Source: Anaerolineae bacterium (GTDB lineage: Bacteria; Chloroflexota; Anaerolineae; Aggregatilineales; UBA3940). From it: a stretch of DNA of 64,000 nucleotides. Numbering within the stretch: position 1 is the first letter of the stretch; each line of letters opens with the position of its first letter. This document shows, one piece after another, positions 2,115 through 22,178 of the stretch. The stretch covers positions 2,835 to 66,834 of the forward strand of contig DAOTYH010000052.1 of NCBI GenBank assembly GCA_034435015.1, written 5' to 3'. The notes under the pieces are model-generated. The model saw only the letters and a program-made list of their open reading frames with translations, was not told the origin of the DNA and ran no database searches. The position numbers were made by a program, and so were the translations under genes.

Positions 2115-2230
2115 CGAGACAATGATCATAAAGGTTGTAATCGTACCGTAACGCCTTGTTCCGGCTCTTCATGTTACACTAATTATTGAAACGAGGTCAT
2201 GTTGGAGTCCGATGGAGGCGGCAGAGCGTT

Positions 2231-2611
2231 ATGACACGAGGACGTATCCTCTACGTGGAGGACAATTTTGATAACCGCATTCTGATCAAGCGTGTTCTGG
2301 AGGTAGAGGGGTATACAGTTATCGAGGCTGACTGCGGGAGAGCAGGTCTCGAACTCGCTCTGTCTGCCCGTCCGGACTTGATCTTGGTGGATATCAACTT
2401 GCCTGACATTGACGGGTATGAAATCACGCGCCGTTTGCGCCAAACGGAAGGTTTTGATCAGGTCCCGATTGTGGCGCTGACCGCCAATGCGCTGGAGGGA
2501 GATCGGCAGAAAGCCTTAAATGCAGGCTGTGACGGTTATATCTCGAAGCCGGTAGACATTGATGCTCTGCCCATGCAGGTAGAGTCTTTTCTGAATCACC
2601 GTGCTGGTTAG
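2231..2611 (+). CDS. single-domain response regulator (CheY-like receiver)
   Basis: ILYVEDNFDNRILI..., phospho-acceptor context LILVDINLPDIDGYE, ALTANA and the conserved Lys in YISKPVD. No output domain. The ORF track starts at TTG 2186; ATG 2231 follows a GGAGG. Confidence 0.85.
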   Translation: MTRGRILYVEDNFDNRILIKRVLEVEGYTVIEADCGRAGLELALSARPDLILVDINLPDIDGYEITRRLRQTEGFDQVPIVALTANALEGDRQKALNAGCDGYISKPVDIDALPMQVESFLNHRAG

Positions 2612-2706
2612 CGCTTCTGTGCACTAGCGCGTTGGCAGTGCGGATGTCAGAAAGGTGTCTGCCCGTTTGATGACAGGCTTAAGTTAACAAGGGTCAAAGC
2701 GGCAAG

Positions 2707-3255
2707 ATGACACAAGACGATCCGAAAGTTCAAGATAATCAGCCTCAAAAACCGGACCAGCAGAGGCCACCGGTAACACAACCCTTGAAGCCTCTCCCTG
2801 ACCTGCCAGGGAAGGACTCCCAGCCGGATAAGCCCAAACAACGTAAGCCTATAGACCCGTCGCAGGCTCATGTCTTGGTTGTGGAAGACAATGTGCCCAA
2901 TTTCGTTTTGATCGCCCGTATGCTGGCTTACATGGGTGTTCAGCGTTGCGAATGGAAGACCTCCGGCTGGCAGGTAGTCGAGTTTGCTGACACACTGCCG
3001 CGCATTGACTTGATCTTGATGGATATTCGTCTGCCGTATGAGGATGGTTTTCAGGCACTGGCCAAGGTAAGGGCTAACCCGCGTTTGAAGGACACGCTGG
3101 TTGTAGCAGTGACGGCGGAGGCCAGTGTTGAGCAGATGAGGCGGGCCAAGGAAGCAGGATTTGACGGGTTTTTGGGAAAGCCCCTTGACCCGGATCGCTT
3201 CCCTGACCAGATTAGGCGTGTGTTGAATGGCGAGCCTGTCTGGGAGATTCACTAG
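2707..3255 (+). CDS. response regulator receiver with an N-terminal Pro/Gln/Lys-rich extension of about 55 aa
   Basis: Receiver motifs VLVVEDN, LILMDIRLPYEDG, VAVTAEA, FLGKPLD. The N-terminal low-complexity segment reads PQKPDQQRPPVTQPLKPLPDLPGKDSQPDKPKQRKP. No output domain. Confidence 0.8.
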   Translation: MTQDDPKVQDNQPQKPDQQRPPVTQPLKPLPDLPGKDSQPDKPKQRKPIDPSQAHVLVVEDNVPNFVLIARMLAYMGVQRCEWKTSGWQVVEFADTLPRIDLILMDIRLPYEDGFQALAKVRANPRLKDTLVVAVTAEASVEQMRRAKEAGFDGFLGKPLDPDRFPDQIRRVLNGEPVWEIH

Positions 3256-3494
3256 CGTCTGGGGTTGTTGGGCTGGTCTTCCCCTTTCTCTGGTCGGCTC
3301 CCAGTTGCTCGGCGCTCAAGAGGTGATCTTAGTCATGAAGCAAATGGCGGGCCGCCTGTTTCTTTCTACAGCAGGGTCTTCCTTCTTAGTATCTCACAGT
3401 TTAAGCGGCGGCCCCTTGGCTCTGGATATGCAGAAAAGGGCTTCTTCTGTGATTCTGCCTGAGCGCTTCGATGTGTGCTTTTTGGAGGAAGGGC

Positions 3495-5012
3495 ATGGAC
3501 AGTAGTCCGTCTGCGCCGGAAGCGGCACTGCCTGAGGTCTCTGACTTACCGAACGACACCCTCTTTCAGATCGCGTCGGCCTCAACGCCCGATCAAATCC
3601 TGAATATTTTGCGCGGCTATGCCTCCCCAGATATTGACCGAATTTCCCTGACAGGGGCCAGCCTTGGGACTGCGACCGAGGCAGTTGCCGTGTGGGACCG
3701 AGACGGCATTGCGTTGGAAGATGGGTTGCCTGGGCCTATCCGCCAACTGATCGGAGCAAAGCCCCTGTTTATCACAAGCGACATTGACTTAGAGCAGTCT
3801 GCCGCGCTGTTCAGGGCCTATGTGGGCGGGACGTTACGGGCGAAGTCTCTGGCCGTTTTCCCGTTGAGCGGCCGGGAGCAGGTGGTCGGCTATCTGGAAC
3901 TTGCCAGCCGGCATCCCCGCTCTTACCCGGAACAGGAAGTTGAGCGCTGGAAGGCATTGGCGGCTTATGTGGGCGTGAACCTAGAGAAACTGCTGTTGCT
4001 TGATGCGCTGAGCCATCAGCTTGAGGAGGCTACTGTTCTGTACAGCACCTCGCTGGCGATGAATGCGGCCCAGAATCTGGAAGAAGTGTATGAGACGGCT
4101 CTCAATCAGGTTGCCTTTCTGAGTGAGGCCAGCCGGGTGTTGATCTATCTAGCCGGCCCCGACCCGCGCTCGGCGATTCAGTATGTGGAGCGAGCGGCGG
4201 TCTGGGAAAATGACCAGTTGGTGTATGTGCACCCCCCTGAGCGCTATGCCATAAGCGAGGTGCCCGTGCTTTCGCAATTTCCCATGTCGCGGGCCAATCT
4301 GGTTTTCAATGATCTTCAGGCTGACATGCGGCTGGAGGCTGGTCTGCGTTCCCGCTATGCCCAGCAAGGGATCAACGCCCTGGTGATGATCCCGCTGGCG
4401 ACCGGGTCGGCTTGGCTGGGTGCGCTTCTGCTCGAAGCCTCGCGCGGGCAGTTCTTCTCAAGCGAGCAGGTCAGGTTGTGCCGCAGTGTCGCGGATCAAG
4501 CGGCCCTGGCTGTTGACCTGCAAATGCTGTTGACACGTGCTCAGCAGACCGCCAAGCGGGAACGGGCTTTGCGCCAGATCATTGAGCATATCCGAAGCGC
4601 TGAGGATGTTGAGTCAATATTGCGCATTGCAGAGCAGGAACTGTCTGAGGCGCTGGGCAGGTCTCCAGATGAACTCGAGTCATTGCCGTGGCGTGATGAA
4701 AGTGTGTTGAGCGAGGGAGACTGGGACCTGGTTGAGGATGTAGGTAATCAGGTGGCGCTGGCAATTGAGAATCTCGAACTGCTTGAGAGCGCGCGACAGG
4801 ACGCCCTGCGGGGGCAGGTCGTCAGTGACCTGATGGCCAAGCTTCAGCGTGCAGTCAGTGTGGACGAAGTGATGGAGACAACGGCGCAAACTCTGCACAG
4901 CGTTCTCTCCGATTATAACATCTCGCTTCGCCTGTTGCCTCAGCGGCATGGATCAAGGGGAAAGGACGAGACCTCCCCGCCAGAGAACAGCTATGCCGGT
5001 GAGACGGAGTGA
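3495..5012 (+). CDS. cytosolic multi-GAF protein without output domain (first of six)
   Basis: No TM segment. Two GAF-like modules (..VVGYLELASRHPRSY.., ..ALVMIPLATGSAWLGALLLEASRGQFFS..), then a reduced module ending ALAIENLELLE and the C-terminal stub shared with the next five genes. ATG 3495 follows GGAGGA; the ORF track starts at 3471. Confidence 0.7.
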   Translation: MDSSPSAPEAALPEVSDLPNDTLFQIASASTPDQILNILRGYASPDIDRISLTGASLGTATEAVAVWDRDGIALEDGLPGPIRQLIGAKPLFITSDIDLEQSAALFRAYVGGTLRAKSLAVFPLSGREQVVGYLELASRHPRSYPEQEVERWKALAAYVGVNLEKLLLLDALSHQLEEATVLYSTSLAMNAAQNLEEVYETALNQVAFLSEASRVLIYLAGPDPRSAIQYVERAAVWENDQLVYVHPPERYAISEVPVLSQFPMSRANLVFNDLQADMRLEAGLRSRYAQQGINALVMIPLATGSAWLGALLLEASRGQFFSSEQVRLCRSVADQAALAVDLQMLLTRAQQTAKRERALRQIIEHIRSAEDVESILRIAEQELSEALGRSPDELESLPWRDESVLSEGDWDLVEDVGNQVALAIENLELLESARQDALRGQVVSDLMAKLQRAVSVDEVMETTAQTLHSVLSDYNISLRLLPQRHGSRGKDETSPPENSYAGETE

Positions 5013-5053
5013 ACGGGGTTGAAAGCAGGACCTCTGCAGATTGATCAAGGGTA

Positions 5054-6700
5054 ATGTCTATGAGTGCAAACCTCTCGTCGAAGCGAACCCTCTGGCAGTT
5101 TCTTACCGAGCCTCATTCTGCTGTCAGAAGAGAAGAAGAGCGGCAACGGGCGCGGGTGCTGGCCGTCGTCTCGCTGGTGCTGGTGCTGGTTGGCCTGCCT
5201 ATTGCTGTGATGGGGACGCTGAATGTAGGCAGTAGCGGATGGCCGATGTGGCTCGTTCTCGTTCTTTGGGCAGCCTCTTATCTGCTGAGCCGTTCATCCA
5301 GACCTCAGGTCGGGGCCGGCCTGCTTGTTTTCGGCTTGGCGGCGCTGGACCTTGGAGCGCTCGTAGCGATGGGCGACGCCGCCGGCGCGGCCCGGACCGT
5401 CATGTTCATGTTGATGCCGATCCTGCTCTCCCTGTTGTTGATGCCTGCCCGTGTCACAGTCGGGCTGGCGGTCGTGGTTGTGGCGGTTCTGCTGGGGATG
5501 TCATTTTTTATTCCATGGTTTTCCATTCGTCAGCTTGCTGTGCCGATGGTTGTGATCGTGCTGATCTCACTGCTGGCAAGCGCGGCGGCTGTCCTGCGTG
5601 ACCGTGATATAGAGACTATCCGCCGGCAGGCGGCTGACCTGAGCCAATACAGCCAGTCGCTTCAGGCCGAGGTTGATCAGCGCACGCGCAATATATTGGC
5701 CATCTCTGAGATCGGTCAGGCCATTACCGGCGCACGCGATCTGGAGGCCCTGCTGAAGCAGGTTGTCAACCTGATCACTGAGCGGTTTGGCTTCTACCAT
5801 GCACAGGTTTTCCTGATTGATGAGGAAGGGCGCTACGCTGTTTTGAAAGCCAGCACTGGTCAGGCTGGCCAGGAACTGCTGGCACGCGGCCACAAGCTGG
5901 AGGTCGGGTCGCGCTCTGTCATTGGGCAGGTCACCTCACGCGGTGAGGTGGTCATTGCCTCTGACACGGACACTGATCCAATCCATCGCCGCAATGAACT
6001 GTTGCCGCATACCCGCTCTGAGATAGCTCTTCCATTACAAGTTGGCGGACGGATCATCGGGGCGTTAGATATTCAGAGTGTGACCCCCAATGCCTTCACC
6101 GAGGCAGATGTACCGGCCTTCCGTACCATGGCTGATCAGTTGGCGATTGCTATTGAGAATGCCCGCCTGTTTGAGCGTGCTCAGCGCGACCTGCGGGATA
6201 TTGAGTTGTTGAACCGTCAGTTGACTGGCGAGGCATGGCGCAAGTATGTCAGCGGGCGTTCGGGTGCTGTCCCTGTTGGCTATGAGGCCAATGAACGGGG
6301 TGTTCATCCCATTCTTCCTGATGCGGCCGCGGTTGATGCGGCTGGAGGGGACGGTACGGTCAGCCTGCCGCTGACCGTACGCGGCGAGACCATAGGTGTC
6401 ATTGATCTAACACCGCGCTCCGGGGAGGAGCCGGATGAGGAGACTCGTACCATCCTTCAGGCTGTGGCTGAGCGTGTGGCGCTGGCACTGGACAGCACCC
6501 GCCTGAGCGAGCAGGCACGCAGTCAAGCCGAACGTGAACAGATTCTGAGCCGCCTCTCGGCAGAGCTTCAAGCGACTACTGATCTCAATATCATTCTAAA
6601 GACAGCGGCGCGGGAAGCCAGCCGGGCGCTGGGGACGCCCAGAGGATTTGTCCACTTGCAGGTTGAGTATGGGCCAAGGGAGCAGGAAGAGAAAACGTGA
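5054..6700 (+). CDS. polytopic-membrane (about 6 TM) GAF sensor protein without output domain
   Basis: N-terminal hydrophobic helices. A conserved GAF-A module (FGFYHAQVFLIDE..HRRNELLPHTRSE..IGALDIQS..IENARLFE). A linker LNRQLTGEAWRKY. A short second GAF-like module (LPLTVRGETIGVIDL..ALALDSTRL). A C-terminal stub. No kinase, cyclase, GGDEF or HTH motifs seen. Confidence 0.8.
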   Translation: MSMSANLSSKRTLWQFLTEPHSAVRREEERQRARVLAVVSLVLVLVGLPIAVMGTLNVGSSGWPMWLVLVLWAASYLLSRSSRPQVGAGLLVFGLAALDLGALVAMGDAAGAARTVMFMLMPILLSLLLMPARVTVGLAVVVVAVLLGMSFFIPWFSIRQLAVPMVVIVLISLLASAAAVLRDRDIETIRRQAADLSQYSQSLQAEVDQRTRNILAISEIGQAITGARDLEALLKQVVNLITERFGFYHAQVFLIDEEGRYAVLKASTGQAGQELLARGHKLEVGSRSVIGQVTSRGEVVIASDTDTDPIHRRNELLPHTRSEIALPLQVGGRIIGALDIQSVTPNAFTEADVPAFRTMADQLAIAIENARLFERAQRDLRDIELLNRQLTGEAWRKYVSGRSGAVPVGYEANERGVHPILPDAAAVDAAGGDGTVSLPLTVRGETIGVIDLTPRSGEEPDEETRTILQAVAERVALALDSTRLSEQARSQAEREQILSRLSAELQATTDLNIILKTAAREASRALGTPRGFVHLQVEYGPREQEEKT

Positions 6701-6753
6701 ACTAAAATAGAGACATGCATTCTACTTAGGGTAGAGCATGTTTTCCCACCTGT

Positions 6754-8592
6754 GTGGGGGTGTATTGTATGAATGATGAAAGCGTGAGCGTAACCCAATC
6801 ACAATGGCGGCGTGTCGTTGAGTGGCTGCTCTATACCCGCGTGCGTGATCCGGCGCTGGCCCGCCATAGCCGTCTAGCCGCCGCCATGCTGCTGGTCGGC
6901 GGAATCACGGCTCTGATAGGTCTGGGGCTGGGAATCGTGTTCTGGCTGAGCAGTTCCAGACTGCCCGCTTGGCGGCCCTACCTGATCGGCGCGGGTGTCT
7001 TCATGGTTCTGCTGGCAGTCATTTACCTGATCAACCGCCTTGTGAGTACGCCGCTGGCAGGCCTTTTGTTGGCTGTCCTGTTGCTGGCCGGCGACCTGCT
7101 CCTGCTGGTGGTTTCCGGGCCGGCCTCTCCGGTCTCTGTGGCCCTGATCGTGCCGGTCATTGTGGCCGGGCTGTTCAGCACGCCGGTTTCGGCAGTAGTG
7201 GTGGCCGCAGTGGCCGCAGTGGCCTATCTGCTCCTGAACCTGCGGGCTGACCCGGCTTACTTGACCCATCTTGTTCAGGGCGAAGCGGCTTTGCAGACCG
7301 GGTTGATGTACCTCAACCTGTTCTTTGTCTCTATCGTGTCATGGCAGTTTGCCCGCACGGCCCGTCAGGCCTTCAAAGAGAGCCAGCAGTTGAGCCTGGC
7401 TCTGGTCGAACAGCGTGAAGAACTGGAAGGACGGCTGGAGGCCCAGACCCGCCAGCTTCAGGCAACTGTTTCGGTAGCGCGGGCGGTAGCCGGCACACGC
7501 AATCTGGACAAACTTCTGGAAGATGTTGTCCGGCTGGTGCGCGAGACATTCGGTTACTACCATGTTCAGGTATTCATGGTAGATGAGGATCGTCAATATG
7601 CCGTCCTGCGCCAGAGTACCGGCGAGGTGGGGCAGAGACTGCTGGCAAGCGGACATCGGTTGCCGGTGGGTAGCCTGAGCGTGATCGGTCAGGTGACAGC
7701 CAGCGGGCGGGCGGTGGTGGCCCGCGATACAGACACCGACGCAGTACATCGGCGCAATGAATTGCTCCCCAATACCCGATCTGAGATGGCCGTCCCGCTT
7801 AGTGTGGGTGATCGGGTGATAGGTGCGCTGGATTTACAGAGTGTCGAGCCGGATGCCTTCCCTGAACAGGTCATCCCTACCTTGCAGGCCCTTGCCGACC
7901 AGATCGCTGTGGCTATTGAAAATGCCCGCCTGTTTGAGCAGGCTGAGCAGAACCTGCGTGAACTGCGGGAACTCAGCCATGAGGTCACTCAGCGCTCGTG
8001 GAGCGAGTTCTTGGCTGAGGCACGTGAGGAGGAAATACACCAATCTTACGGCCCAGAAACGAAGGCCATTGAGATATTCCGTAGCCGTGTGATTGAGCGG
8101 GTGTTGACATCTGGTACGGTGATTGTATCAACCGGTAAGGATGGGCGGCAGGCGTTTGTGGCCGCGCCCATCGTTGTGCGTAACGAAGTGATCGGCGTGC
8201 TGGGCGTAGAACCGGACGGGGTCCGGGAGTGGTCTCAGGATGACCTCCTGCTCATTCAGGGCATTGCTGATCGGACCGCCCTGGCTGTCGAAAATGCGCG
8301 GCTGTACCTGCAAGCACGGCGTGCCGCTGAACGCGAGCGTCTGGTCAGCTCCATTGCGGAGCGTCTCCAGCGTGCCCCCAGCCTTGCCCTCCTGCTGGAG
8401 AGTGCTACAAGGGAGCTGGCAGAGGCACTGGGCACGGAGAGTGTATACGCTGAGATCAACGTCGAACGCCCGCTCGCCCGTGCCCGTAAAGAGGTATCGG
8501 AAGAACCGGAAGTGGTGGAGGCCGAGTCGCGGCAATCGGCTGAGGATGCGGTTGCCCCGGACGAGCCTGAGGAGGCGAGAGCTGAATCATGA
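6754..8592 (+). CDS. polytopic-membrane GAF sensor protein without output domain
   Basis: Same architecture as 5054..6700. GAF-A reads FGYYHVQVFMVDE..HRRNELLPNTRSE..IGALDLQS..IENARLFE. The acidic C-terminal tail overlaps the next gene (ATGA). The true start may be ATG 6769. Confidence 0.8.
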   Translation: MGVYCMNDESVSVTQSQWRRVVEWLLYTRVRDPALARHSRLAAAMLLVGGITALIGLGLGIVFWLSSSRLPAWRPYLIGAGVFMVLLAVIYLINRLVSTPLAGLLLAVLLLAGDLLLLVVSGPASPVSVALIVPVIVAGLFSTPVSAVVVAAVAAVAYLLLNLRADPAYLTHLVQGEAALQTGLMYLNLFFVSIVSWQFARTARQAFKESQQLSLALVEQREELEGRLEAQTRQLQATVSVARAVAGTRNLDKLLEDVVRLVRETFGYYHVQVFMVDEDRQYAVLRQSTGEVGQRLLASGHRLPVGSLSVIGQVTASGRAVVARDTDTDAVHRRNELLPNTRSEMAVPLSVGDRVIGALDLQSVEPDAFPEQVIPTLQALADQIAVAIENARLFEQAEQNLRELRELSHEVTQRSWSEFLAEAREEEIHQSYGPETKAIEIFRSRVIERVLTSGTVIVSTGKDGRQAFVAAPIVVRNEVIGVLGVEPDGVREWSQDDLLLIQGIADRTALAVENARLYLQARRAAERERLVSSIAERLQRAPSLALLLESATRELAEALGTESVYAEINVERPLARARKEVSEEPEVVEAESRQSAEDAVAPDEPEEARAES

Positions 8593-10862
8593 CCACGCAA
8601 TCCAGACAACGAACACGTATTGATCTACGGGCGCTTCCCATTGCAGTGAAGCTGGCACTGACGCTGGGTCTTGTTCTGGCGCTCAGCGGTATCTTTACGG
8701 CTTGGCTGGTAGGGCGCTCATTGCGCGATGTTCAGACGCAGGTCTTTATGAGCGACCTCCAGTCTCTCAGCCGTGCTCAGGCTTTCCGGGTGGTAGATGC
8801 TCTCTCCCAAGAGATAACAGCCCTGAACCGCTTGGGGAATAATGTCAACCTGCGTGTGATTTTGGCACTGCGCCCTGTGGATGTGACCCCTTATCCCGGC
8901 ACGGCTGATCTGGGAAGCGACACGACGCTCAACGCCCTGATCAGCGGCTTCCGCGAGACGCACGGCGAGTTTCGCAGTGTAGCACTGGTGGACATCAGCG
9001 GTCAGTTGCTCGCGATTGACCCCTTGCCGCCGGCATTGGATCGTATCTCGACCGAGAACTGGACATGGTTTTACGAGGCTTATAACCGCGGGATGGGGGC
9101 GGCTTATATATCAGGTCCTCTGGATGACGGGTTAACCGGCCTGCGGGGTATCCATATTGCCGTGCCGATCTATAGCGGCACGGGCGATAATCGTCTGCTT
9201 GGTGTCCTGTACGGCATTTGGGATGCCAGCAATGTGCTGGGTGTTGCTCAGGCCGCCGGTCAGCGGGAGTCGTTGCTGGTCTCTCCAGAGGGTCTAATGC
9301 TGGCGGCGCCCGGCGATCTGATCGGCTCTCCCTTGCCTGCCGATCTAACGGCTCGGATAAATGCCTCTCCTTCTGGTGCTTTCCTGTACACTGACCCGGC
9401 TGGCAGGCGGTGGCTGTACGGGTATGTCAGCCTGAGTGAATTAGGGCTGGCGGAAGGGCCTGCCTCAAGCTTAGGCTGGGTGGCCATCACCCGCGAACCG
9501 TTCTCAGCAGTTGAGGCCACTGTAGCCGCCCTGCTGAACGCCTTGGCGCTGGCTACTCTGGCCAGCGGCGCCATGATTGTTCTGCTGACCCTGATCTTTA
9601 CCCGCATACTGCTCTCGCCACTGCGGCATCTGACACAGGCCGCCGTGCGGCTTCAGGCGGGCGAGCTGACTACTCCCGTCCCTGAGCTTCCTATGGATGA
9701 AGTGGGGCGTCTGGCGGACGTACTGCGCGGCTTGGTAGGGCGTCTGCTTTACCGGGTGGGTCAGCTTCGTGCCGCCGTGCAGGTTTCGCGTGTGACAGCC
9801 CAAACCCTCGACATCAACCAGTTGCTGGAAGGTGTTGCGCGGGCGCTGGCAGATCAGTTTGGCTACCCCCTCGTCCATATCTACCTGCTGGATGCTTCTG
9901 GTAAGAATGCCCGCCTCCATGCTGTAGCCGGTGATCGCGGCGGATACTGGTTGCGGGTCGGGCATCGCATCACGGTAGATGAGACCACGCCGGTAGGGCG
10001 GGCTATCCTGTTGCGTGAGACCCAGTTTAGTAGCGATCAGGAACTGCCGATCTGGCCCGGTGCGCCTGTCAAGCCGGCGCAACTGGCCCTCCCGTTGCAG
10101 GCCGGCGGACGCGCGCTGGGGGCCTTACATCTGATCACCAGGCCGATGACGGTGTTCGAACAGGAGGACATTGACCTGTTGCTCCTGATCGCCGACCAGC
10201 TCAGCGCGTCAGTTGAGAACGCGCGTCTGTTTGAGCAAAGCGCCGCTAACCTTGCTGAGATCGAGGCCCTGAACCGCCGCCTGACTCGTCAGGGGTGGGA
10301 AGAGTTTCTGGAGAGCAGGGGGGATGCTCTGCGCCATACGCTGGACCCCGATCAGCGCTGGCCTCAGACGCCTGAGGAAATCCGGCGGCGCAGTGAGGTA
10401 AAGGCGGTTGTCTATACAGATGCCGATGGGCGCTCGGTGTTGGCCGCCCCGCTGGTTCTGCGCGGCGAGACGGTCGGGACGCTGGCCGTGACCCGCCCTG
10501 CCGGGGAGGGCTGGTCGCGGGAAGAGGTGTCCCTGCTGGAATCCGTGGCGGCCCGTATGGCGATAGTAGCTGAGGGCATCCGTCTGGTCGAGGAGTCAAC
10601 ACGCCGCGCTGAGATTGAACAGCGTGTAAGCGAAGTCTCGGCTCAACTGCTCCAGCGTGCGGCCAGCGTGGATAGTGTCCTGCAAAATGCCTTGAGCCAG
10701 TTGAGCGGGGCGCTTGGCTCTGATCATGTGTCCCTGCGGATCGGCCCTCCGCCGGTTGAGGGCGATCATCAGATCTCGCCGCGCAGTACAGGCGGCACAG
10801 GCCCGGACGGCTTCGGCAAAGGCGGTGTTGAGGGGGATGGAGATTTGAGCAATGGCCGTTGA
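8589..10862 (+). CDS. TM-periplasmic Cache-like-TM-HAMP-GAF sensor protein without output domain
   Basis: Two TM helices flank a domain of about 290 aa (..LRGIHIAVPIYSG..LLGVLYGIWD..WLYGYVSL..). HAMP reads PLRHLTQAAVRLQAGELTT..EVGRLADVLRGL. A diverged GAF-A (FGYPLVHIYLLD..SVENARLFE), a second GAF-like module and the stub follow. The start overlaps the upstream stop (ATGA). Confidence 0.8.
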   Translation: MTTQSRQRTRIDLRALPIAVKLALTLGLVLALSGIFTAWLVGRSLRDVQTQVFMSDLQSLSRAQAFRVVDALSQEITALNRLGNNVNLRVILALRPVDVTPYPGTADLGSDTTLNALISGFRETHGEFRSVALVDISGQLLAIDPLPPALDRISTENWTWFYEAYNRGMGAAYISGPLDDGLTGLRGIHIAVPIYSGTGDNRLLGVLYGIWDASNVLGVAQAAGQRESLLVSPEGLMLAAPGDLIGSPLPADLTARINASPSGAFLYTDPAGRRWLYGYVSLSELGLAEGPASSLGWVAITREPFSAVEATVAALLNALALATLASGAMIVLLTLIFTRILLSPLRHLTQAAVRLQAGELTTPVPELPMDEVGRLADVLRGLVGRLLYRVGQLRAAVQVSRVTAQTLDINQLLEGVARALADQFGYPLVHIYLLDASGKNARLHAVAGDRGGYWLRVGHRITVDETTPVGRAILLRETQFSSDQELPIWPGAPVKPAQLALPLQAGGRALGALHLITRPMTVFEQEDIDLLLLIADQLSASVENARLFEQSAANLAEIEALNRRLTRQGWEEFLESRGDALRHTLDPDQRWPQTPEEIRRRSEVKAVVYTDADGRSVLAAPLVLRGETVGTLAVTRPAGEGWSREEVSLLESVAARMAIVAEGIRLVEESTRRAEIEQRVSEVSAQLLQRAASVDSVLQNALSQLSGALGSDHVSLRIGPPPVEGDHQISPRSTGGTGPDGFGKGGVEGDGDLSNGR

Positions 10863-12585: not shown

Positions 12586-12597
12586 GGAGGGGCTGTT

Positions 12598-14793: not shown

Positions 14794-17700
14794 GTAGCAC
14801 AAAACCTTCTCAACCCAAGCGCAGGGCACGCAGCCTCCGGCGTACCCTGCAATTGATCTTCATTGCTCTGGTGGCTTTGCCGGTTCTGACGCTCACCGTC
14901 GTCTCAATGCTGAACTCGGTCAATAACAGCCGGCAGGCCGCTGTCAACCGTTTGAACACGCTTGCCGACATCCAGACCCAGGTGCTGGAGCAATGGGTCT
15001 CTGCCGCCCAGAACAACCTGAGCCAGAACCTCGCTAATCCGGTCATCGGCCCGATCATCGTCCGCTTGGTCACAACCCCTCCAGAGGAGATGACCACTGC
15101 CGCCTATGCCAGCAACCGTTTGATCTTCATTAACCATGCGCGCGTGGTGATCGGCGGGCCGGATTCGCCGTTCAGCCGTATTGTCCTGACGGATATGGAT
15201 GGTATCGTGCGCGGCGCCGACTTCCAGACCCTTCTGGGGCGCGACTGGAGCATGGAGCCGTGGTTCAATGCGGCCATACAGGCCGGTGATGCGGTTGCAT
15301 TGGTAGGCCCCTACCGCGACCCTGTAGACGGCAAGGACAGCCTGTATTTCTCAACCACAGTACGCACGTCTGAGGGTGTGGTAGTAGGCGTGTTGTGCGG
15401 CAGAGCGACGCTTGACCCCTTGAAGAGACTCATGGAACGAGTACCGCCGCTGGGTGAGACAGGGGAATACCTGCTGATCCGGCAGGGCCAGCAGTATGTC
15501 ACGCCGCCGCGCCATGACCCCGGCGCCCGGCTGGCAACTGATGAAATTGTCTCGACCGTCCTGAGTGGAAATAACGGTAGCGGCACTTGGCGCGATTATC
15601 GGGGAGAGGAAGTCATTGGGGCGTACCGTTGGGTTGCCCCGCTGAACATGGGCTTGATCGTCAAGCAGGACAGCGTCGAGGTACTAGGCGGCCTGTGGAG
15701 GCTGGTTAGCTCGTCGGCCATTATTGGTATGCTGTTTGTGGGGTTAGGCGCATTGCTTAGCTTTGTCTTCTCTGAGCGCCTGCTAGGCCCGCTGGAGGCC
15801 TTGAGCCGAGTAGCGATGCGTGTGTCCGCTGGCGACCTGAACCTGCGTGCGCCTGAAACGGATGCAACCGAGCTTAGGCGGCTGGCAGACTCGTTCAATG
15901 CGATGACCGCCCAGATCAGGTCTATGATCGAGAGCCGTGAGGAAACGATCCGAGAGAGGACCCGCGAGCTGGCTATTGTCGCCCAGATGGGCCGTGTGAT
16001 TGCCGCTGAAACGAACCTTGAGCGCCTGCTTGATCTGGCTATTGGCCTCATCCGCGACCGGCTGGGGTACTATCACGTTCAGATCTTCATGGTGGATGAC
16101 CTGAAGCAGAACGCGGTCCTGCGTGCCAGTACGGGCGAGGCCGGGCGTCAGTTGCTGGCTCTTGGTCACCGACTGCCGGTGGGGTCACGCTCGGTCGTTG
16201 GTCAGGCCGCTGGTCGGGGTGAGCCGGTGCTGGCATCGGATACCCGTTATGCGGACTATTGGCGGCCTAACCCCCTGTTGCCTGACACACGTGCCGAGCT
16301 GGCAATTCCCCTGCTCACGGGCGATCAGCTTATTGGGGTGCTTGACATCCAGTCTACCGAGCCGGAGACCTTCAGCGAAGACACGATTGCCGTGCTTCAG
16401 ACGCTGGCTGACCAGTTGGCGGTAGCTATCCGCAATGCGCAGTTGTTTGGGGAAAAGGAGAGCCTGCTGTCGGCCTCGCTTGACCTGACCCAGATGCTCA
16501 CCCGTGAGGGCTGGGGTGACTACGTGGCACAGCGCAGGGGCCAGAATGGCGCTATCGGCTTTGAGTATAACCTGAGCGAAGTACGTCCTCTGGATGGCTC
16601 CTCAGGAATATCGGGGCAGGGTATCAGCCTTCCCATTGCACTGCGTGGTGCGATCATCGGTCAGCTTGAAGCCCAGCTACCGGAAGGTGAGACTTGGACC
16701 GAGGAGGACAGACAGCTAGTCAGTCAGGTGCTCGACCGGGTGGCCCTGGCACTCGAAAACGCACGTCTGTTCGAGCAAACTCAGATTTCTCTGGCAGAGA
16801 CCAACCGCCTCTATCAGGCCAGCCAGCGGATCGCCGCCGCTGACACCGTCAAGGACCTGGTAGAGGAGTTGATTGACGTTGCCAAGATTGACATCGCCGA
16901 CCAAATCACCCTCTACCTGGTGGATGATCCGGCTGAGCCGCCCGGCGACCGGTGGGTTGAGGCGGCAGGGAGTTGGGTCCGTGACCCGCATAGCGCTTTG
17001 GGCCAAATGCCGTCCCGACTGCGCACCAGTCAGCCGCCCTTGAAGGGAATTGAGAGCATACCCCTTGACGGGCGGGTGATTGATGATCTGACTGCCGCTG
17101 AGGATATGGCTCCAGAAAGCCGTGCCCAGCTTCAGGAGCTGGGGGTCAGGTCTATGGCTGTCTTCCCGCTGGCGGCTGGCCGCCGCACGCTGGCCTGGCT
17201 GGTGATCTACAGCTCTGCTCAGGGTAGTGCTTTCACTGAGGGCGATGTCCGTTTCTTTGAGACGATCACCGACCAAGCGGCCTCAGCACTTGAAGGACTG
17301 CGTCTGTTCGAGCAGACTCAGATTCGTGCCCGCCGTTTGCAGGCCACCAATGAGGTCTCACGGGCGGCATCCTCGATCCTGAACCCCGACATCCTACTGC
17401 CGCTGATCGTAGATCGCATCAGCGAGGCGTTTGGATACTACCATGTCCAGATATTCCTGGTGGATGAGCTGGGCGAATGGGCTGTGCTACGGGCCAGCAC
17501 GGGTGAGGTCGGTCAGGAGCTGTTGCGTCGTAAACACGCATTGGCTGTCGGCTCGCGTTCGGTGATCGGGCAGGTGACGGCGCTGGGCGAAATCGTTATT
17601 GCCCGCGATACTGACGTGGACGCGGTCCACCGGCGCAACGAGTTACTGCCCAACACACGGGCTGAGATGGCAATCCCGCTCAAGACAGGCGACCGTGTCA

Positions 17701-20390
17701 TTGGGGCGCTGGATGTGCAAAGCACGCAGGTCAACGCCTTCGATGCAGAGGCTCAGGCCATCCTGCAATCACTGGCCGACCAGATTTCCGTGACTCTTGA
17801 GAATGCCCAGCTCTTCCAGGAAATCCAAGAGCGTGTGGCTGAGCTGACAACCGTTAACCTCGTTTCGCAGACAGTCTCTCGTGCTGAGACGTTGGACGAC
17901 CTGTATGAGGTCGTGACAACGCAACTGATGCGCACGTTCGGTGCTCAGTATGGCTTCTTGGGTGTGCTGGGCAAGGACAACCTGCTCCATTTCCCGATCT
18001 TCATTGAAGGAGGGGAGCGGCTCGAGTCCCCGCCGCCGCAGCCGCTGGGCGAGGGCCTCAGCGGCCACGTCATTCGTACCAAACAGGTGCTCCTGCTCAA
18101 TGAGAATCTCCCCCAAGAAGCTGAACGGCTGGGTGCGCGGATTATCGGCGAGATGCCTAAGAGCCTGCTGGCCGTCCCCTTGACCCTTGGGGATGAAGCT
18201 GTCGGCGTGCTGAGCATTCAGGATGCCGAGAAGGAACATGCCTACGGTGAGGCTCATATCCGCCAGTTGACCACGCTGGCCGCCTATATTGCCATCAAAA
18301 TCCGCAACGCCGAACTGCTTGAAGAGGCTCAGCGGCGGGCGGCTGAACTTGGCTTCCTGTTCAACCTGACACGGGCCGCCGTCTCCACTTCTGATCTGGA
18401 TGAGGCTCTCTCGCATGTGGCGGAGGTTCTGCACAGAGAGATCGAGGGGGCGGAAGCGGCAGTCATCTATCTGGCTAATGCTGAGGATAACTGCCTTGAC
18501 CCGCGTGCGGCAATCGGCTATGGACGTGACATTGCCCTTCGGCAGGGACGTATCGAGATGGGTGAAGGGCTGGTTGGTATGGTCGCTGTCCAGGGAAGGC
18601 CGCTGGTCATCGGCGATGCATGGCAGGAGGGGCCGGGCGGAAATGGTAGTGGCGGACGGACGCGATCAGCGGTGCTGGTTCCCCTCATGGTGGGCGATAT
18701 GCTGATCGGCGTCCTGACGGTTGAGAGCACACAGCCCAACGCCTTCGGCGAGAGCGAACTGCGTCTGCTGGAGGCGGCCTCTGGTACGCTGACGGCAGTG
18801 ATCCAGAATGACCGTCTGCTGGAGCAGATCACCCGTGCCAACGAGCAGTTGCGTGAGCTTGACAAGCTTAAATCCCAGTTCCTTGCCAACATGAGCCACG
18901 AGTTGCGCACACCCCTCAACTCGATCATCGGTTTCTCGCGTGTCATGCTGAAGGGGATAGACGGTCCGCTGAATGATCTTCAGGTTCAGGACCTCACTAC
19001 CATCCATCAGAGCGGCCAGCATCTGCTGGGGCTGATCAATGACATCCTTGACCTGTCCAAGATCGAGGCGGGCAAGATGGAGATTCAACCCGAATATATT
19101 GACTTGGTTGAGATCATTGAGGGTGTAATGTCCACCGCCAAGGGCCTGGTCAAAGATAAGCCCATCCAGCTCTTCAAGGAGGTCGAGGAGGGACTGCCTC
19201 AGGTCTATGGCGACCCGTTGCGCGTGCGGCAGGTACTGCTGAACTTGGTTTCTAATGCCGCCAAATTCACCAAAGAGGGGAGCATCACTGTTCGTGCCGT
19301 CCGCAAAGACTTCGATCCAGTCACGCTGGAGCCGCCGCGTGTTCAGGTTGATGTGGCCGATACCGGTATAGGGATCGCGCCGAAAGATATGGAGAAACTG
19401 TTTGTCGCCTTCCAGCAGGTGGACGGGTCAAGCACAAGGCAGGTCGGTGGAACAGGTCTTGGGCTGGCGATCTCTAAGCAGTTTATCGAGATGCATGGCG
19501 GGCGCATCTGGGTAGAGAGCCAGCTAGGGGTTGGCTCGACCTTCAGCTTCACCATACCGCTTCATCCTCCCAGCGTGCCGGTCGCTGAGCAGGAGCCTGT
19601 CGTTCTAAGGCCGGCTTCTAGTGAGGGACAGCCGGTTGTGCTGGCGGTAGACGACGAGCCGGGCGTGCTTGATCTGTATGCCCGTTATCTGGAAAAGGCA
19701 GGGTATGCCCTGATCGGGTTGAACAGCGCAAACGATCTCCTGCGGCATGTACGCGAGATGCACCCATCAGCTATCGTGATGGACCTGAACCTGCCGGGCA
19801 AGAGCGGCTGGGATGCTATCACCGATCTGCGCCGGTTCGATGATACCCGTAACGTGCCGGTCATCATTTGCAGTATCGAGGATGAGCGCCGGCGCGGCAG
19901 TCAGGTAGGGGTGGCTGACTATCTGGTCAAGCCGATCATCGAAGATGAGTTGCTGGAAGCCCTCAGCCGTGCGGTGAACGGCATGGTTTCGCCGCCTGCT
20001 ACGGGGCTGGATGTCTTGGATGTCCTGATCATTGACTCGGACGAACAGCATGCGCGTGCCGTTGAGGGCGTGCTTGTGCAGTCAGGCCGTTACGTGGTCC
20101 GCCGGGCCGCCATGGGCTTTGAGGGCTTGCAGGCTATTCAGGATCGTAAGCCGGACGTGGTTATCTTGGAGCTTGACTTGCCTGACATGGACGGCTATGG
20201 CCTGCTTGTCTCCATGCGTTCGCATGCCGATACACGTGATATTCCGGTCCTGATCATGACGGGGCGCGAGCTGACCAGCGATCAGCTTGGCCGCCTCGAC
20301 GGCAAGACAACGCGCTACCTGAGCAAGGCGATCTGTCAGGATGTGCGCTGGGCTGACCATCTGTCAGCGGCGCTTGAGAGTCTGCGTTAG
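14790..20390 (+). CDS. 1866-aa hybrid sensor histidine kinase (Cache-like, HAMP, six GAF-type modules, HisKA, HATPase, two receivers)
   Basis: TM, periplasmic domain, TM, then HAMP (..RLADSFNAMTAQI..). Two copies of the GAF-A module (LGYYHVQIFMVDD.. and FGYYHVQIFLVDE..HRRNELLPNTRAE..). H-box FLANMSHELRTPLNSI. ATP-lid DTGIGI and GGTGLGLAI. Receivers with IVMDLNLPGKSG and VILELDLPDMDG. The ATG overlaps the upstream stop (ATGA). Confidence 0.9.
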   Translation: MSSTKPSQPKRRARSLRRTLQLIFIALVALPVLTLTVVSMLNSVNNSRQAAVNRLNTLADIQTQVLEQWVSAAQNNLSQNLANPVIGPIIVRLVTTPPEEMTTAAYASNRLIFINHARVVIGGPDSPFSRIVLTDMDGIVRGADFQTLLGRDWSMEPWFNAAIQAGDAVALVGPYRDPVDGKDSLYFSTTVRTSEGVVVGVLCGRATLDPLKRLMERVPPLGETGEYLLIRQGQQYVTPPRHDPGARLATDEIVSTVLSGNNGSGTWRDYRGEEVIGAYRWVAPLNMGLIVKQDSVEVLGGLWRLVSSSAIIGMLFVGLGALLSFVFSERLLGPLEALSRVAMRVSAGDLNLRAPETDATELRRLADSFNAMTAQIRSMIESREETIRERTRELAIVAQMGRVIAAETNLERLLDLAIGLIRDRLGYYHVQIFMVDDLKQNAVLRASTGEAGRQLLALGHRLPVGSRSVVGQAAGRGEPVLASDTRYADYWRPNPLLPDTRAELAIPLLTGDQLIGVLDIQSTEPETFSEDTIAVLQTLADQLAVAIRNAQLFGEKESLLSASLDLTQMLTREGWGDYVAQRRGQNGAIGFEYNLSEVRPLDGSSGISGQGISLPIALRGAIIGQLEAQLPEGETWTEEDRQLVSQVLDRVALALENARLFEQTQISLAETNRLYQASQRIAAADTVKDLVEELIDVAKIDIADQITLYLVDDPAEPPGDRWVEAAGSWVRDPHSALGQMPSRLRTSQPPLKGIESIPLDGRVIDDLTAAEDMAPESRAQLQELGVRSMAVFPLAAGRRTLAWLVIYSSAQGSAFTEGDVRFFETITDQAASALEGLRLFEQTQIRARRLQATNEVSRAASSILNPDILLPLIVDRISEAFGYYHVQIFLVDELGEWAVLRASTGEVGQELLRRKHALAVGSRSVIGQVTALGEIVIARDTDVDAVHRRNELLPNTRAEMAIPLKTGDRVIGALDVQSTQVNAFDAEAQAILQSLADQISVTLENAQLFQEIQERVAELTTVNLVSQTVSRAETLDDLYEVVTTQLMRTFGAQYGFLGVLGKDNLLHFPIFIEGGERLESPPPQPLGEGLSGHVIRTKQVLLLNENLPQEAERLGARIIGEMPKSLLAVPLTLGDEAVGVLSIQDAEKEHAYGEAHIRQLTTLAAYIAIKIRNAELLEEAQRRAAELGFLFNLTRAAVSTSDLDEALSHVAEVLHREIEGAEAAVIYLANAEDNCLDPRAAIGYGRDIALRQGRIEMGEGLVGMVAVQGRPLVIGDAWQEGPGGNGSGGRTRSAVLVPLMVGDMLIGVLTVESTQPNAFGESELRLLEAASGTLTAVIQNDRLLEQITRANEQLRELDKLKSQFLANMSHELRTPLNSIIGFSRVMLKGIDGPLNDLQVQDLTTIHQSGQHLLGLINDILDLSKIEAGKMEIQPEYIDLVEIIEGVMSTAKGLVKDKPIQLFKEVEEGLPQVYGDPLRVRQVLLNLVSNAAKFTKEGSITVRAVRKDFDPVTLEPPRVQVDVADTGIGIAPKDMEKLFVAFQQVDGSSTRQVGGTGLGLAISKQFIEMHGGRIWVESQLGVGSTFSFTIPLHPPSVPVAEQEPVVLRPASSEGQPVVLAVDDEPGVLDLYARYLEKAGYALIGLNSANDLLRHVREMHPSAIVMDLNLPGKSGWDAITDLRRFDDTRNVPVIICSIEDERRRGSQVGVADYLVKPIIEDELLEALSRAVNGMVSPPATGLDVLDVLIIDSDEQHARAVEGVLVQSGRYVVRRAAMGFEGLQAIQDRKPDVVILELDLPDMDGYGLLVSMRSHADTRDIPVLIMTGRELTSDQLGRLDGKTTRYLSKAICQDVRWADHLSAALESLR

Positions 20391-20430
20391 GCAGGTTTTC
20401 TTGTCTGTATCAGTTAGGATTGTAATGGAT

Positions 20431-20460
20431 GGGTGCGGGTTTTCTCCTGCACCCTTCTAT
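20431..20460 (+). terminator. hairpin downstream of the hybrid kinase gene
   Basis: GGGTGCGGG, loop TTTTCT, CCTGCACCC (9 bp, one G-U), followed by the T-rich TTCTATT..CTTTTTATTT. Located about 40 nt after the kinase stop codon. Confidence 0.35.
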
Positions 20461-20510
20461 TACCCTTCTGCTTTTTATTTACAAGCTATTATTCCAAGAG
20501 AGCGTAGAGT

Positions 20511-22178
20511 ATGACCATTGTCCGTGTTCAGACCCATTGTCTGCGCTGTGGCTATGCAGAAGACTACGAACGTCCCCTGTTGGCTTGTCCGCAATGCGGC
20601 GAGACTTACTTGGATGCCCAGTATGTGCTGGAAGAGGGGCTTCCGTGGCCGGAGAGACTGCGGGATCGCCCCCCGACCATGTGGCGCTACCGCGAGTTGC
20701 TCCCCCTGCGCGACGACCTGAACATCGTCAGCTTGGGCGAGGGTGGTACTCCGCTGATCCGCTCCGAGAGTCTGGCCGCTATGCTGGGCCTGCGCCACCT
20801 GTATATTAAGGACGAGCGGCAGGGGCCGACTGCCTCGTTTAAGGATCGGCAGGCTTCGCTGGCCATTTCGACGATGCGCGAGCTGGGGATCACTGAGGCG
20901 GTAGTAGCCAGCACAGGTAATGTCGCCATCGCCTATTCAGCTTATGCGGCCCGCGCCGGCATCAAGCTGTGGGCTTTTATCATCAGCAGTATCCCCCCAG
21001 AGAAGATGCGTGAGATCACGCTCTATGGCACTGAGCTGGTCAAGGTGACCGGCACATACGATCAGGCCAAGCAGGTGGCTTCCCGCTTTGCTGAGAGCAA
21101 GGGTCTTTACCTTGATCGAGGCATCAGAAGCATCGCCGCTAAAGAGAGCATGAAGACGATTGCCTTTGAAATAGCGGAGGAGCTGGGGAAGATTTACGGC
21201 CCCTCGCCAAGCGGTACGCCGTGGCGTACCCCAGACTGGTACATTCAGGCTGTCAGCGGCGGGCTGGGGCCGATTGGCGTAGTCAAAGGCTTCCGTGAGC
21301 TGGAGGCCGCCGGCCTTTCCAACAGTGTGCCGAAGCTGGCCAACATTCAGTCTACTGGCTGTGACCCAATGGTTCAGGCTTTCCGCGCCGGTCTGGAAGA
21401 TGCGCCTCCCTTCCCGTATCCCAAGACCCGTATTGCCACAGTGGCTACCGATGTGCCCGGTGTGGCCTATAAACTGCTCCGGCAAGAAGTGCTGGAGAAC
21501 GGGGGGGTCTTTGAGTCAGTCAGTGATGAGGAGGCTTTCCGCGCCCTCAAAACGGTTGCCCGGCTGGAGGGGCTGTCGGTTGAGCCGGCGGCGGCGCTGG
21601 CTTTTGCGGGCCTGTTTAAGATGGTCCGCCAGAAAATGATTGACCCGGACGAGATCGTGGTGGTCAATTGTAGCGGTCATACTTTCTCAGTTGAAAAGCA
21701 CATCCTGGGCGATGAACTGGGCCGTGACGTGGATGTGACACCCGCCGCACGGCCTGCCGTGCCGCATGAAGGCCTGCTGGCCGCGCTGGAGACAGTGGAT
21801 CGGCAGATCAGCAAGGTGGTGGTGATTGAAGATGACCGGAGCGCCTCCGAACTGATGGCCCGTATCTTGCAGGCCTACGGCGTCCCGGAGGTATTGCAGG
21901 CCCCGGACGGGAGCGCGGGCATCCAGATGGTACGTCAGGTGCGCCCTGATCTGGTGGTGCTCGACCTGATGATGCCGGGGATAGACGGGTTCGGCGTCCT
22001 TGACCACCTAAAAAGTGATGAGAGGCTCCGCGATGTGCCGGTAATCGTTGTTACCGCCAAAGACCTGACCAATGAGGAACGCGCCCGTCTGAAGGGGCGT
22101 GTGCAAAGCCTGCTTCAGAAGGGTTCATTTATTGACGAGGCGATCCTGCAAGGGTTGATTGATGAGAAGCTGGGTTAG
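20511..22178 (+). CDS. threonine-synthase-like fold-type-II PLP enzyme fused to a C-terminal response-regulator receiver
   Basis: N-terminal Cys4 ribbon CLRCG..CPQCG. WRYRELLP, SLGEGGTPLI, the PLP-lysine motif TASFKDRQAS and the glycine loop AVSGGLGP. From about nt 21812 a complete receiver: VVVIEDD, LVVLDLMMPGIDGF, VIVVTAKD. Confidence 0.8.
   Translation: MTIVRVQTHCLRCGYAEDYERPLLACPQCGETYLDAQYVLEEGLPWPERLRDRPPTMWRYRELLPLRDDLNIVSLGEGGTPLIRSESLAAMLGLRHLYIKDERQGPTASFKDRQASLAISTMRELGITEAVVASTGNVAIAYSAYAARAGIKLWAFIISSIPPEKMREITLYGTELVKVTGTYDQAKQVASRFAESKGLYLDRGIRSIAAKESMKTIAFEIAEELGKIYGPSPSGTPWRTPDWYIQAVSGGLGPIGVVKGFRELEAAGLSNSVPKLANIQSTGCDPMVQAFRAGLEDAPPFPYPKTRIATVATDVPGVAYKLLRQEVLENGGVFESVSDEEAFRALKTVARLEGLSVEPAAALAFAGLFKMVRQKMIDPDEIVVVNCSGHTFSVEKHILGDELGRDVDVTPAARPAVPHEGLLAALETVDRQISKVVVIEDDRSASELMARILQAYGVPEVLQAPDGSAGIQMVRQVRPDLVVLDLMMPGIDGFGVLDHLKSDERLRDVPVIVVTAKDLTNEERARLKGRVQSLLQKGSFIDEAILQGLIDEKLG

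Follow-up and report, generated by a model that had tools for sequence, protein, structure and literature searches.

How would a bacterium use six GAF-domain proteins, none with an output of its own, that are encoded in a row in front of a single histidine kinase? The question is raised by a gene cluster in the stretch of DNA analysed here (the window), which comprises 64,000 nucleotides of contig DAOTYH010000052.1 from an Anaerolineae bacterium (assembly GCA_034435015.1). The usual picture of two-component signalling pairs one sensor kinase with one regulator. Open reading frame (ORF) listing and translation place an operon-like cluster of about 21 kb at 2186-23257 of the window, with every gene on the + strand. 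It holds two receivers (R1 and R2), six GAF proteins (G1 to G6), one hybrid histidine kinase (HK), an enzyme of the pyridoxal phosphate (PLP) type fused to a receiver (PLP-REC) and an EamA/DMT transporter. The cluster combines known domains in an undescribed, class-wide conserved organisation of two-component signalling. On balance we lean towards reading it as one multi-input unit, where the kinase-less sensors would control one hybrid kinase that in turn would signal to R1, R2 and PLP-REC. The genes of the cluster are as follows.

2186-2611, + strand: R1, single-domain response regulator, receiver only (Pfam Response_reg 1.7e-28)
2707-3255, + strand: R2, single-domain response regulator (Pfam Response_reg 8.6e-19)
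3471-5012, + strand: G1, soluble, degenerate GAF domains and the family tail (Pfam, GAF only)
5054-6700, + strand: G2, domain of about five transmembrane (TM) segments, GAF, long helix, mini-GAF, tail (Pfam, NCBIfam, hydropathy)
6754-8592, + strand: G3, domain of 4-6 TM segments, GAF, long helix, mini-GAF, tail (Pfam, NCBIfam, hydropathy)
8589-10862, + strand: G4, TM, periplasmic dCache_1, TM, HAMP, GAF, mini-GAF, tail (Pfam)
10852-12585, + strand: G5, 6-TM domain, GAF, 70-residue helix, mini-GAF, tail (Pfam, AlphaFold2)
12598-14793, + strand: G6, TM, helical periplasmic domain of about 255 residues, TM, HAMP, GAF, mini-GAF, tail
14790-20390, + strand: HK, hybrid histidine kinase of 1866 aa (Pfam)
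20511-22178, + strand: PLP-REC (Pfam PALP 5.6e-63 and Response_reg)
22214-23257, + strand: EamA/DMT-family transporter, last gene of the cluster (Pfam EamA 1e-18)

From G1 through HK the genes are separated by 41, 53, -4, -11, 12 and -4 nt, which agrees with the small gaps and three overlaps described in an earlier note on this DNA. The same holds for the distances of 120 nt from HK to PLP-REC and 35 nt from PLP-REC to the DMT gene. That note counted ten genes within 2186-20390, where we find nine credible ones. The tenth was probably an ORF of 92 aa at 3227-3505, which is predicted by one automatic caller and was rejected as a gene; it had no match in 77 related loci and no counterpart among the gene calls of a related annotated contig.

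These 77 loci come from a scan of one genome per species, in which more than 583 related stretches were found; the loci were fetched with 10-kb flanks and annotated by ORF calling together with hidden Markov models built from the window's own domains. The genes of the cluster were recounted by tblastn, independently of the ORF caller, because calling by the longest ORF at times picked a long antisense ORF in place of the gene (as with the L028 kinase and R2 of the window). Gene order was observed to be conserved in the 77 loci of class Anaerolineae, which represent about 70 species of filamentous bacteria. The recurring order is two receivers, a soluble multi-GAF protein, 3-9 GAF-only sensors with MASE-like, dCache-HAMP or HAMP inputs, a multi-GAF hybrid kinase, the PALP-REC fusion and the DMT transporter. 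It was found in the cultured Bellilinea caldifistulae GOMI-1 (L063), in Levilinea and Ca. Villigracilis, and in Aggregatilineales, Ardenticatenia, Thermoflexales and Phototrophicaceae, and gene calls made independently at JGI and ENA, with Pfam matches precomputed, give an identical order. The conservation of gene order in Chloroflexota that the earlier note had asked about is thus strong synteny across the class Anaerolineae, and the same order in dozens of species is an arrangement far beyond chance.

The individual junctions are conserved in the same way. Consecutive GAF-type genes are separated by a median of -4 nt, with 296 of 317 junctions at 60 nt or less. The R1-R2 pair was located by tblastn in 37 loci and lies upstream of the array in all of them. 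PLP-REC follows the kinase in 25 of the 26 loci with enough downstream sequence (tblastn; the exception is L028), and a DMT gene follows PLP-REC in all eight fetched loci that reach that far, and also in L080 and L081.

The conservation of the sensors was observed to differ from that of the core. Each cluster contains 3-9 sensors, whereas the kinase core, the R1/R2 pair and PLP-REC are present once; of the complete GAF ORFs in the fetched loci, 356 lack a kinase domain and 36 have one. In distant lineages the number and types of the sensors differ and the core is kept, the sensors being the least conserved part; this pattern suggests that variable inputs feed a constant core. In the nearest clade (L003, L004, L005, L008 and L020), G1-G6 and HK have one-to-one positional orthologues at 34-62% identity, and the sensor paralogues must therefore be old and individually maintained. 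For example, the positional orthologues of G1 are 39-46% identical (L003, L004 and L020), those of G2 34-53% and those of G3 52-62%. Among the best 93 matches of G5, most of which are nearly full-length, identity is 46-84%; they originate from Anaerolineae metagenome bins and carry GAF families only, except for MASE6 in three. Orthologues of G6 are 720-743 aa long and 59-70% identical, with the match extending to their C-terminus.

The GAF-only proteins were confirmed to lack output domains, as had been proposed from motifs alone. GAF, GAF_2 and GAF_3 score above the Pfam cut-off in G1-G6 and HK; Pfam assigns GAF to all six sensors, HAMP additionally to G4 and G6, and dCache_1 to G4. Neither Pfam nor NCBIfam identified an output domain or HisKA/HATPase_c boxes in G1-G6, and Pfam at E up to 1 gave no output domain in the N- and C-terminal parts of the sensors. 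In the larger relatives of G1 and G4 the domains are limited to GAF, PAS, HAMP and dCache. Hidden output domains were rejected as candidates because Pfam, NCBIfam, PDB sequence searches and the AlphaFold2 model of G5 searched with Foldseek matched solely GAF, HAMP, dCache, PAS and MASE6.

The model of G5, built on 83 homologues with a mean predicted local distance difference test score of 90, shows membrane helices, a GAF domain (residues 230-342), a helix of 70 residues (350-419), a small GAF (424-481), a helix of 46 residues (488-533), a short helix (537-552) and a disordered end. Foldseek of this model against the PDB returned GAF, phytochrome and PDE2A-type tandem-GAF matches only and no catalytic fold, so that the G5 fold conceals no catalytic domain; TM-scores against the PtsP and fRMsr GAF structures are 0.8-0.87 over the target.

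The earlier note had held that all six proteins carry sensory input modules, which stands for G2-G6 and fails for G1. Hydropathy places 4-6 TM segments in G2, G3 and G5; in G4 (at 18-36 and 319-337), G6 and HK it predicts one TM segment on either side of a periplasmic domain. A MASE6 match of 33.3 bits covers the membrane domain of a G5 orthologue (P0044, the one orthologue scanned by Pfam), and the MASE6 accession is given in a precomputed list for two further G5 matches. G1 has no membrane or input domain besides its degenerate GAFs and is soluble, as the hydropathy scan gave one weak hydrophobic window, located inside a GAF. We consider it a divergent member that opens the array, with a tail that shares 37% identity with that of G6.

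All of the membrane sensors end in a common cytoplasmic module. G2-G6 are mutually 32-46% identical over about 350 C-terminal residues, where the order is GAF, 70-residue helix, mini-GAF and tail. The kinase was found to contain the same module (residues 378-692) and a second copy of its GAF (821-1051), with 36-54% similarity to G2-G6. The tail comprises the C-terminal 60-90 residues and follows one consensus over 242 GAF-only proteins, LALENARLFEExQRRAxRERxxxEIxxRxxxxxDxxxxLxTAVxELGxALGAxxVxIxL. In the solved tandem-GAF kinases 8w26 and 6oap it aligns with the inter-GAF linker and with the initial helix and strand of the GAF that follows, and the sensors are therefore seen to stop at a fixed point just within a would-be further GAF. 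The large GAF has near-invariant residues over 302 proteins, including YH.GIFL, NP.LP.TRSE and IGALDVQS.

Several other readings of these domains were considered and rejected. A circularly permuted GAF formed from mini-GAF and tail is unsupported for the monomer, as the mini-GAF in the AlphaFold2 model is a compact sheet with its own flanking helices. A phosphotransfer element of the Hpt or DHp kind does not fit a tail consensus without a conserved His. Cyclic-nucleotide binding of the PDE/CyaB type was dismissed since an NKFDE-like motif occurs in none of the 302 GAF-only module proteins. Finally, the dCache domains of G4 and HK were considered as amino-acid sensors for the product of the PLP enzyme, and the Arg of the amino-acid motif, read by eye, is missing in both (EPWF and ENWTWF).

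The module is also very widespread outside these clusters: public proteins contain 8382 representatives of 50%-identity clusters that match it at E <= 1e-30. The top-scoring matches are very large proteins (1100-3200 aa) in which as many as 14 matched stretches follow one another. Stand-alone and concatenated modules both exist, which provides a Rosetta-stone-type argument for their functional coupling.

HK was observed to be built of TM, dCache, TM, HAMP, five to six GAF-type domains (Pfam gives five GAF stretches), HisKA, HATPase_c and two receivers. Two of its GAF domains, at about residues 405-548 and 865-1010, are of the sensors' GAF subtype. Pfam identifies it as a HisKA/HATPase_c kinase (HisKA 1.3e-21, HATPase_c 1.4e-29), and the H, N, G1 and G2 boxes read from the sequence are intact (SHELRTPL, NLVSNAAKFT, DTGIGI and GGTGLGL). 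By tblastn the catalytic core is 58-81% identical in 34 loci; the whole kinase is only 21-57% identical. The receiver residues corresponding to CheY 12, 13, 57, 87 and 109 are intact in R1, R2, the first receiver of HK and the receiver of PLP-REC. The second receiver of HK in the window lacks the acceptor and has Glu at position 57 (ILELDLPD, HK residues ~1790-1800); among 27 aligned orthologous receivers this position is Asp in 25 and Ala in one.

No TM segment was predicted in the first 450 kinase residues in 21 of the 31 relatives with an intact kinase N-terminus, and nearly all GAF-only proteins in those clusters do have predicted TM segments. Because such a kinase is without a TM segment, the kinase-less proteins are the only membrane sensors of the soluble-kinase clusters. 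In 17 of the 21 soluble-kinase loci a ParA/MinD-type ATPase (AAA_31, CbiA) is encoded directly upstream of the kinase. Overall, 21 loci contain this ParA-like gene (about 261 aa), nearly always immediately before the kinase gene; the window, with its membrane-anchored kinase, lacks it. The soluble kinases that we inspected start with a conserved Lys-rich peptide, M[SP]KKK..KRLDKLF, and a low-complexity Pro/Gln-rich linker, after which they carry only half a mini-GAF, namely the last two strands and the final helix. The sensor tail, which corresponds to the first helix and strand of a GAF, might be completed in trans by this half mini-GAF, and vice versa. ParA-type ATPases typically interact with Lys-rich N-terminal peptides. 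ParA-like proteins such as PpfA and ParC position cytoplasmic chemoreceptor clusters (PMC6829392). The genes concerned are located as follows in the numbering of their loci.

L063, 14361-15143: ParA-like gene
L059, 15654-16439: ParA-like gene
L032, 11028-11813: ParA-like gene (18 further loci contain one)
L059, from 16405: soluble kinase, N-terminus inspected
L060, from 14561: soluble kinase, N-terminus inspected
L032, from 11773: soluble kinase, N-terminus inspected
L043, from 11920: soluble kinase, N-terminus inspected
L063, from 15112: soluble kinase, N-terminus inspected

Three receivers are candidates for the output of the kinase. Orthologues of R1 are 45-71% identical and lie directly upstream of R2 in all 37 loci that have the pair. 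R2 is the most conserved protein of the cluster: over 40 loci the identity of its receiver core is 69-95%, much higher than for the kinase and the sensors of the same clusters, and its relatives form more than 120 90%-identity clusters at 82-100% identity, which are labelled DivK by JGI. The N-terminal 50 residues of R2 are a variable, low-complexity extension rich in Pro, Gln and Lys. Such conservation suggests that R2 probably acts on a conserved cellular partner outside the cluster.

The third receiver belongs to PLP-REC, which consists of a four-Cys zinc ribbon, a fold-type-II PLP domain of the ThrC family and a C-terminal receiver; in the AlphaFold2 model about 30 disordered residues join the catalytic domain to the receiver. 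The nearest solved structures of the PLP domain are threonine synthases (1uim, E 4e-42 by sequence search), to which the predicted fold compares with TM-scores of 0.82-0.85 over the target at 28-32% identity. Cysteate synthase 9k3c, the second-closest solved relative, also covers the zinc-ribbon N-terminus. PLP-REC nevertheless stays under every NCBIfam cut-off for ThrC and cysteate synthase, with 248 against 303 bits for PRK08197 (the best) and 152 against 167 for TIGR00260. All 120 listed homologues, which are 58-78% identical, have the same PALP-REC fusion. In 118 homologues the four zinc-ribbon Cys, PT(G)SFKDRQ, ASTGNV, D-R-G-I-(R/K)-S and QAVSGG(L/M)GP were found to be invariant or near-invariant, and the PLP lysine (SFKDR) is invariant.

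Residues N154, S155, R160 and N188 of Thermus thermophilus ThrC, which we take to bind the phosphate of O-phosphohomoserine, align to R, G, A and G in PLP-REC in a pairwise alignment that is gapped in this region. At those positions PLP-REC has the invariant D-R-G-I-R/K-S and S-G-G-L/M-G-P, and these motifs (D-R-G-I-(R/K)-S and QAVSGG(L/M)GP) presumably stand where threonine synthase binds the phosphates of substrate and cofactor. The nearby invariant Arg/Lys could substitute for the phosphate-site residues of ThrC. PLP-REC looks catalytically competent.

Taken as one multi-input unit, the cluster may be imagined to work as follows. Five membrane sensors and one soluble protein would take different inputs, through polytopic MASE-like domains, through dCache-HAMP and through a helical periplasmic domain with HAMP. 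The sensors would relay their state to the hybrid kinase by protein-protein contact, either module to module or tail to module, and the kinase would phosphorylate R1, R2 and the receiver of the ThrC-like enzyme. R2 may then work on its conserved target elsewhere in the cell, and the adjacent DMT transporter may handle an amino-acid-type product or substrate of the PLP enzyme. The proposal of the earlier note, one kinase served by kinase-less sensors, is partly supported in that HK is the sole kinase of the cluster in the window, shares its module with the sensors, is accompanied by 3-9 of them in the class and has soluble counterparts. A single kinase is not the rule everywhere, as several relatives have a second GAF kinase upstream of R1.

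An unlikely alternative is that the GAF-only proteins signal on their own, by binding a ligand in the GAF pocket and acting with the tail on R1/R2, on unlinked kinases or on membrane machinery, with the clustering explained by common descent and co-regulation. Residues of the GAF pocket region are near-invariant across paralogues, the conserved tail finishes in residues with predicted disorder, in the manner of a docking peptide, and some arrays have no kinase in the fetched range. Against this alternative stand the synteny with the same kinase, R1/R2 and PLP-REC throughout the class, the soluble-kinase variants without membrane input of their own, and the presence of the same module inside the kinase.

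Somewhat less probable still is that the sensors are truncated kinase paralogues serving as negative regulators or decoys; by pairing with the kinase in inactive heterodimers, or by capping its assemblies, they would set a threshold and not deliver signals. G4, aligned to HK residues 128-716, has the domain layout of the kinase's N-terminal third, the C-terminus of the proteins falls precisely at the point at which a multi-GAF kinase would continue into its next GAF, and long helices of the parallel-dimer type are predicted. On the other hand, diverse inputs and long-kept paralogues fit distinct signals better than a generic brake, and in the soluble-kinase lineages sensor and kinase architectures are too different for simple heterodimers. 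That the array is evolutionary debris, made up of recent tandem duplicates or decaying kinase fragments beside an ordinary hybrid kinase with its neighbours, is very improbable and effectively refuted by the conservation data, for although the genes are tandem paralogues that stop inside a would-be GAF domain, these paralogues are merely 32-46% identical and hence old, length-conserved orthologues occur at 34-84% identity in many species, 242 proteins share an identical stop point, and the reading frames are intact.

Returning to the multi-input unit, a number of observations weigh against it. Arrays without a kinase within 10 kb occur in L026, L037 and L079, and a second GAF kinase of 950-1130 aa is encoded upstream of R1 in L007, L010, L021, L031, L034 and L071; the sensors could thus have other partners. 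The conserved pocket residues of the GAF could reflect a common small ligand and not a common interface. No Hpt domain that could work with the two kinase-attached receivers was found by Pfam in the proteins of the cluster. In addition, a terminator-like hairpin sits between the kinase and PLP-REC genes. This hairpin and a promoter-like site at the other end of the cluster are located as follows.

2003-2031, + strand: promoter-like site TTGCCC-17-TATAAT upstream of R1, the top consensus match in the region (10/12)
20431-20454, + strand: terminator-like GC-rich hairpin between HK and PLP-REC, 9-bp stem with 7 GC pairs

Both elements are weak evidence, as the number of promoter-like sites is not above the shuffled expectation and the hairpin has a poor T tract. 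The first is a possible start of the transcription unit; the second possibly causes partial termination or acts as an RNA-stability or processing element.

We also considered a broader proposal, which is doubtful when all of its parts are taken jointly. The clusters might encode a third type of bacterial receptor assembly besides chemoreceptor arrays and stressosomes, in which kinase-less membrane sensors would dock via their GAF modules on a HisKA-type hybrid kinase, possibly with a partial GAF being completed in trans. In some lineages the assembly would be positioned by the ParA-like ATPase. As outputs it would have the highly conserved single-domain receiver and a PLP enzyme that is controlled by phosphorylation and paired with its exporter, and a secreted signal derived from an amino acid would be a possible product.

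The earlier note knew of no described system of this kind, a statement that needs qualifying: NreA-NreB, chemoreceptor-CheA and RsbR-RsbT offer precedents in principle, of which none has this set of parts. The cluster belongs to none of the chemosensory, stressosome or NreA-type families. In the NreABC system of Staphylococcus carnosus, the output-less GAF protein NreA, a nitrate receptor, regulates the adjacently encoded histidine kinase NreB (PMC8199190). NreA is however a single soluble GAF of about 150 aa that occurs once, unlike the 3-9 mostly membrane-bound tandem-GAF proteins with their own inputs found here, and NreC is DNA-binding, whereas Pfam identified no DNA-binding regulator in this cluster. 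The mechanism by which NreA modulates NreB was reportedly described by Niemann et al. in 2014. NreA was not among the 17 PDB sequence matches at E <= 0.01.

Chemoreceptor arrays (MCP-CheW-CheA) resemble the present system more broadly. They also combine many receptors of diverse inputs and one conserved cytoplasmic module with one kinase, use single-domain receivers as output and vary in receptor number by lineage. Cyanobacterial pix and tax loci have the order receiver, receiver, GAF-containing MCPs and hybrid CheA. The ParA-like ATPase that adjoins the kinase in 21 related loci can be compared with PpfA and ParC (PMC6829392). The resemblance is nevertheless one of analogy and not of homology, as the kinase here is of the HisKA type and the module is GAF-based; Pfam gave no match to MCP signalling, CheW or CheA-type (Hpt, P5) domains in the 11 cluster proteins at E <= 0.01.

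The stressosome consists of RsbR paralogues, RsbS and the kinase RsbT; its paralogous sensors are kinase-less, vary at the N-terminus, keep one conserved domain at the C-terminus, assemble together and control one kinase (PMC9765535, PMC9237128). Its common domain is STAS, for which the cluster proteins gave no Pfam match, its kinase RsbT is a serine kinase and its complex is cytoplasmic. Heteromeric contacts of the plant ethylene receptors are mediated by GAF domains. These receptors likewise contain GAF domains, some have degenerate kinase domains, and they occur in receptor complexes of high molecular mass (PMC2799528). They differ in being eukaryotic, in that all members retain a kinase-like domain and in taking their input through a copper/ethylene site in the membrane. 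PLP-REC in turn shares the fold, the SFKDR lysine and the ASTGN motif with ThrC and cysteate synthase, and differs from them by its C-terminal receiver and, in the gapped alignment, by the apparent replacement of the phosphate-site residues. A literature search for this cluster, for receiver-ThrC fusions and for GAF arrays of Anaerolineae found no description in a coverage that mostly left out subscription journals.

The cluster represents a class-wide unit of 15-20 kb in which most sensors are kinase-less and no transcription factor serves as output. Should the sensors indeed act through the kinase, it would be a new structural solution to signal integration, in which the logic of a chemoreceptor array is built from GAF modules. 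It would also give a function to hundreds of proteins that are labelled only "GAF domain-containing protein", such as the 356 complete ones of the fetched loci. The receiver-fused family of ThrC-like enzymes and the exceptionally conserved single-domain receiver defined here both merit biochemical work. Wastewater sludge, sediments and hot springs are rich in Anaerolineae, which are difficult to cultivate, and a dominant conserved signalling unit provides a lead to the control of their behaviour.

A few minor observations were made on the loci and on the window. Downstream of the DMT gene in L032, L045, L053 and L062, we noticed a convergent pair encoding a receiver protein of 244 aa and a REC-GAF kinase of 525-630 aa. 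Locus L028, on a contig labelled uncultured Pleurocapsa sp., contains R1, an R2 that is 87% identical to that of the window, GAF sensors and a kinase of 2215 aa that is not followed by PLP-REC; either mis-binning or horizontal transfer would account for it. In this locus an antisense ORF of 2232 aa, remarkably long, covers nearly the whole kinase gene (9770-16468, - strand), and an antisense ORF of 201 aa lies over R2 in the window (2647-3252, - strand). Such long antisense ORFs are probably an effect of composition. The true start of R1 is probably the ATG at 2231, as chosen by the gene caller (126 aa), rather than the TTG at 2186. Upstream of the cluster, a divergent gene for ATP sulfurylase is located at 60-1292 (- strand). 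A tie between this gene and a cysteate-synthase-like reaction of PLP-REC was considered and dropped as probably coincidence, because the upstream neighbours vary between loci. The remaining window was found to be ordinary chromosome, with genes for ATP sulfurylase, a class II aminoacyl-tRNA synthetase (D/K/N type), UvrC and CoaE.

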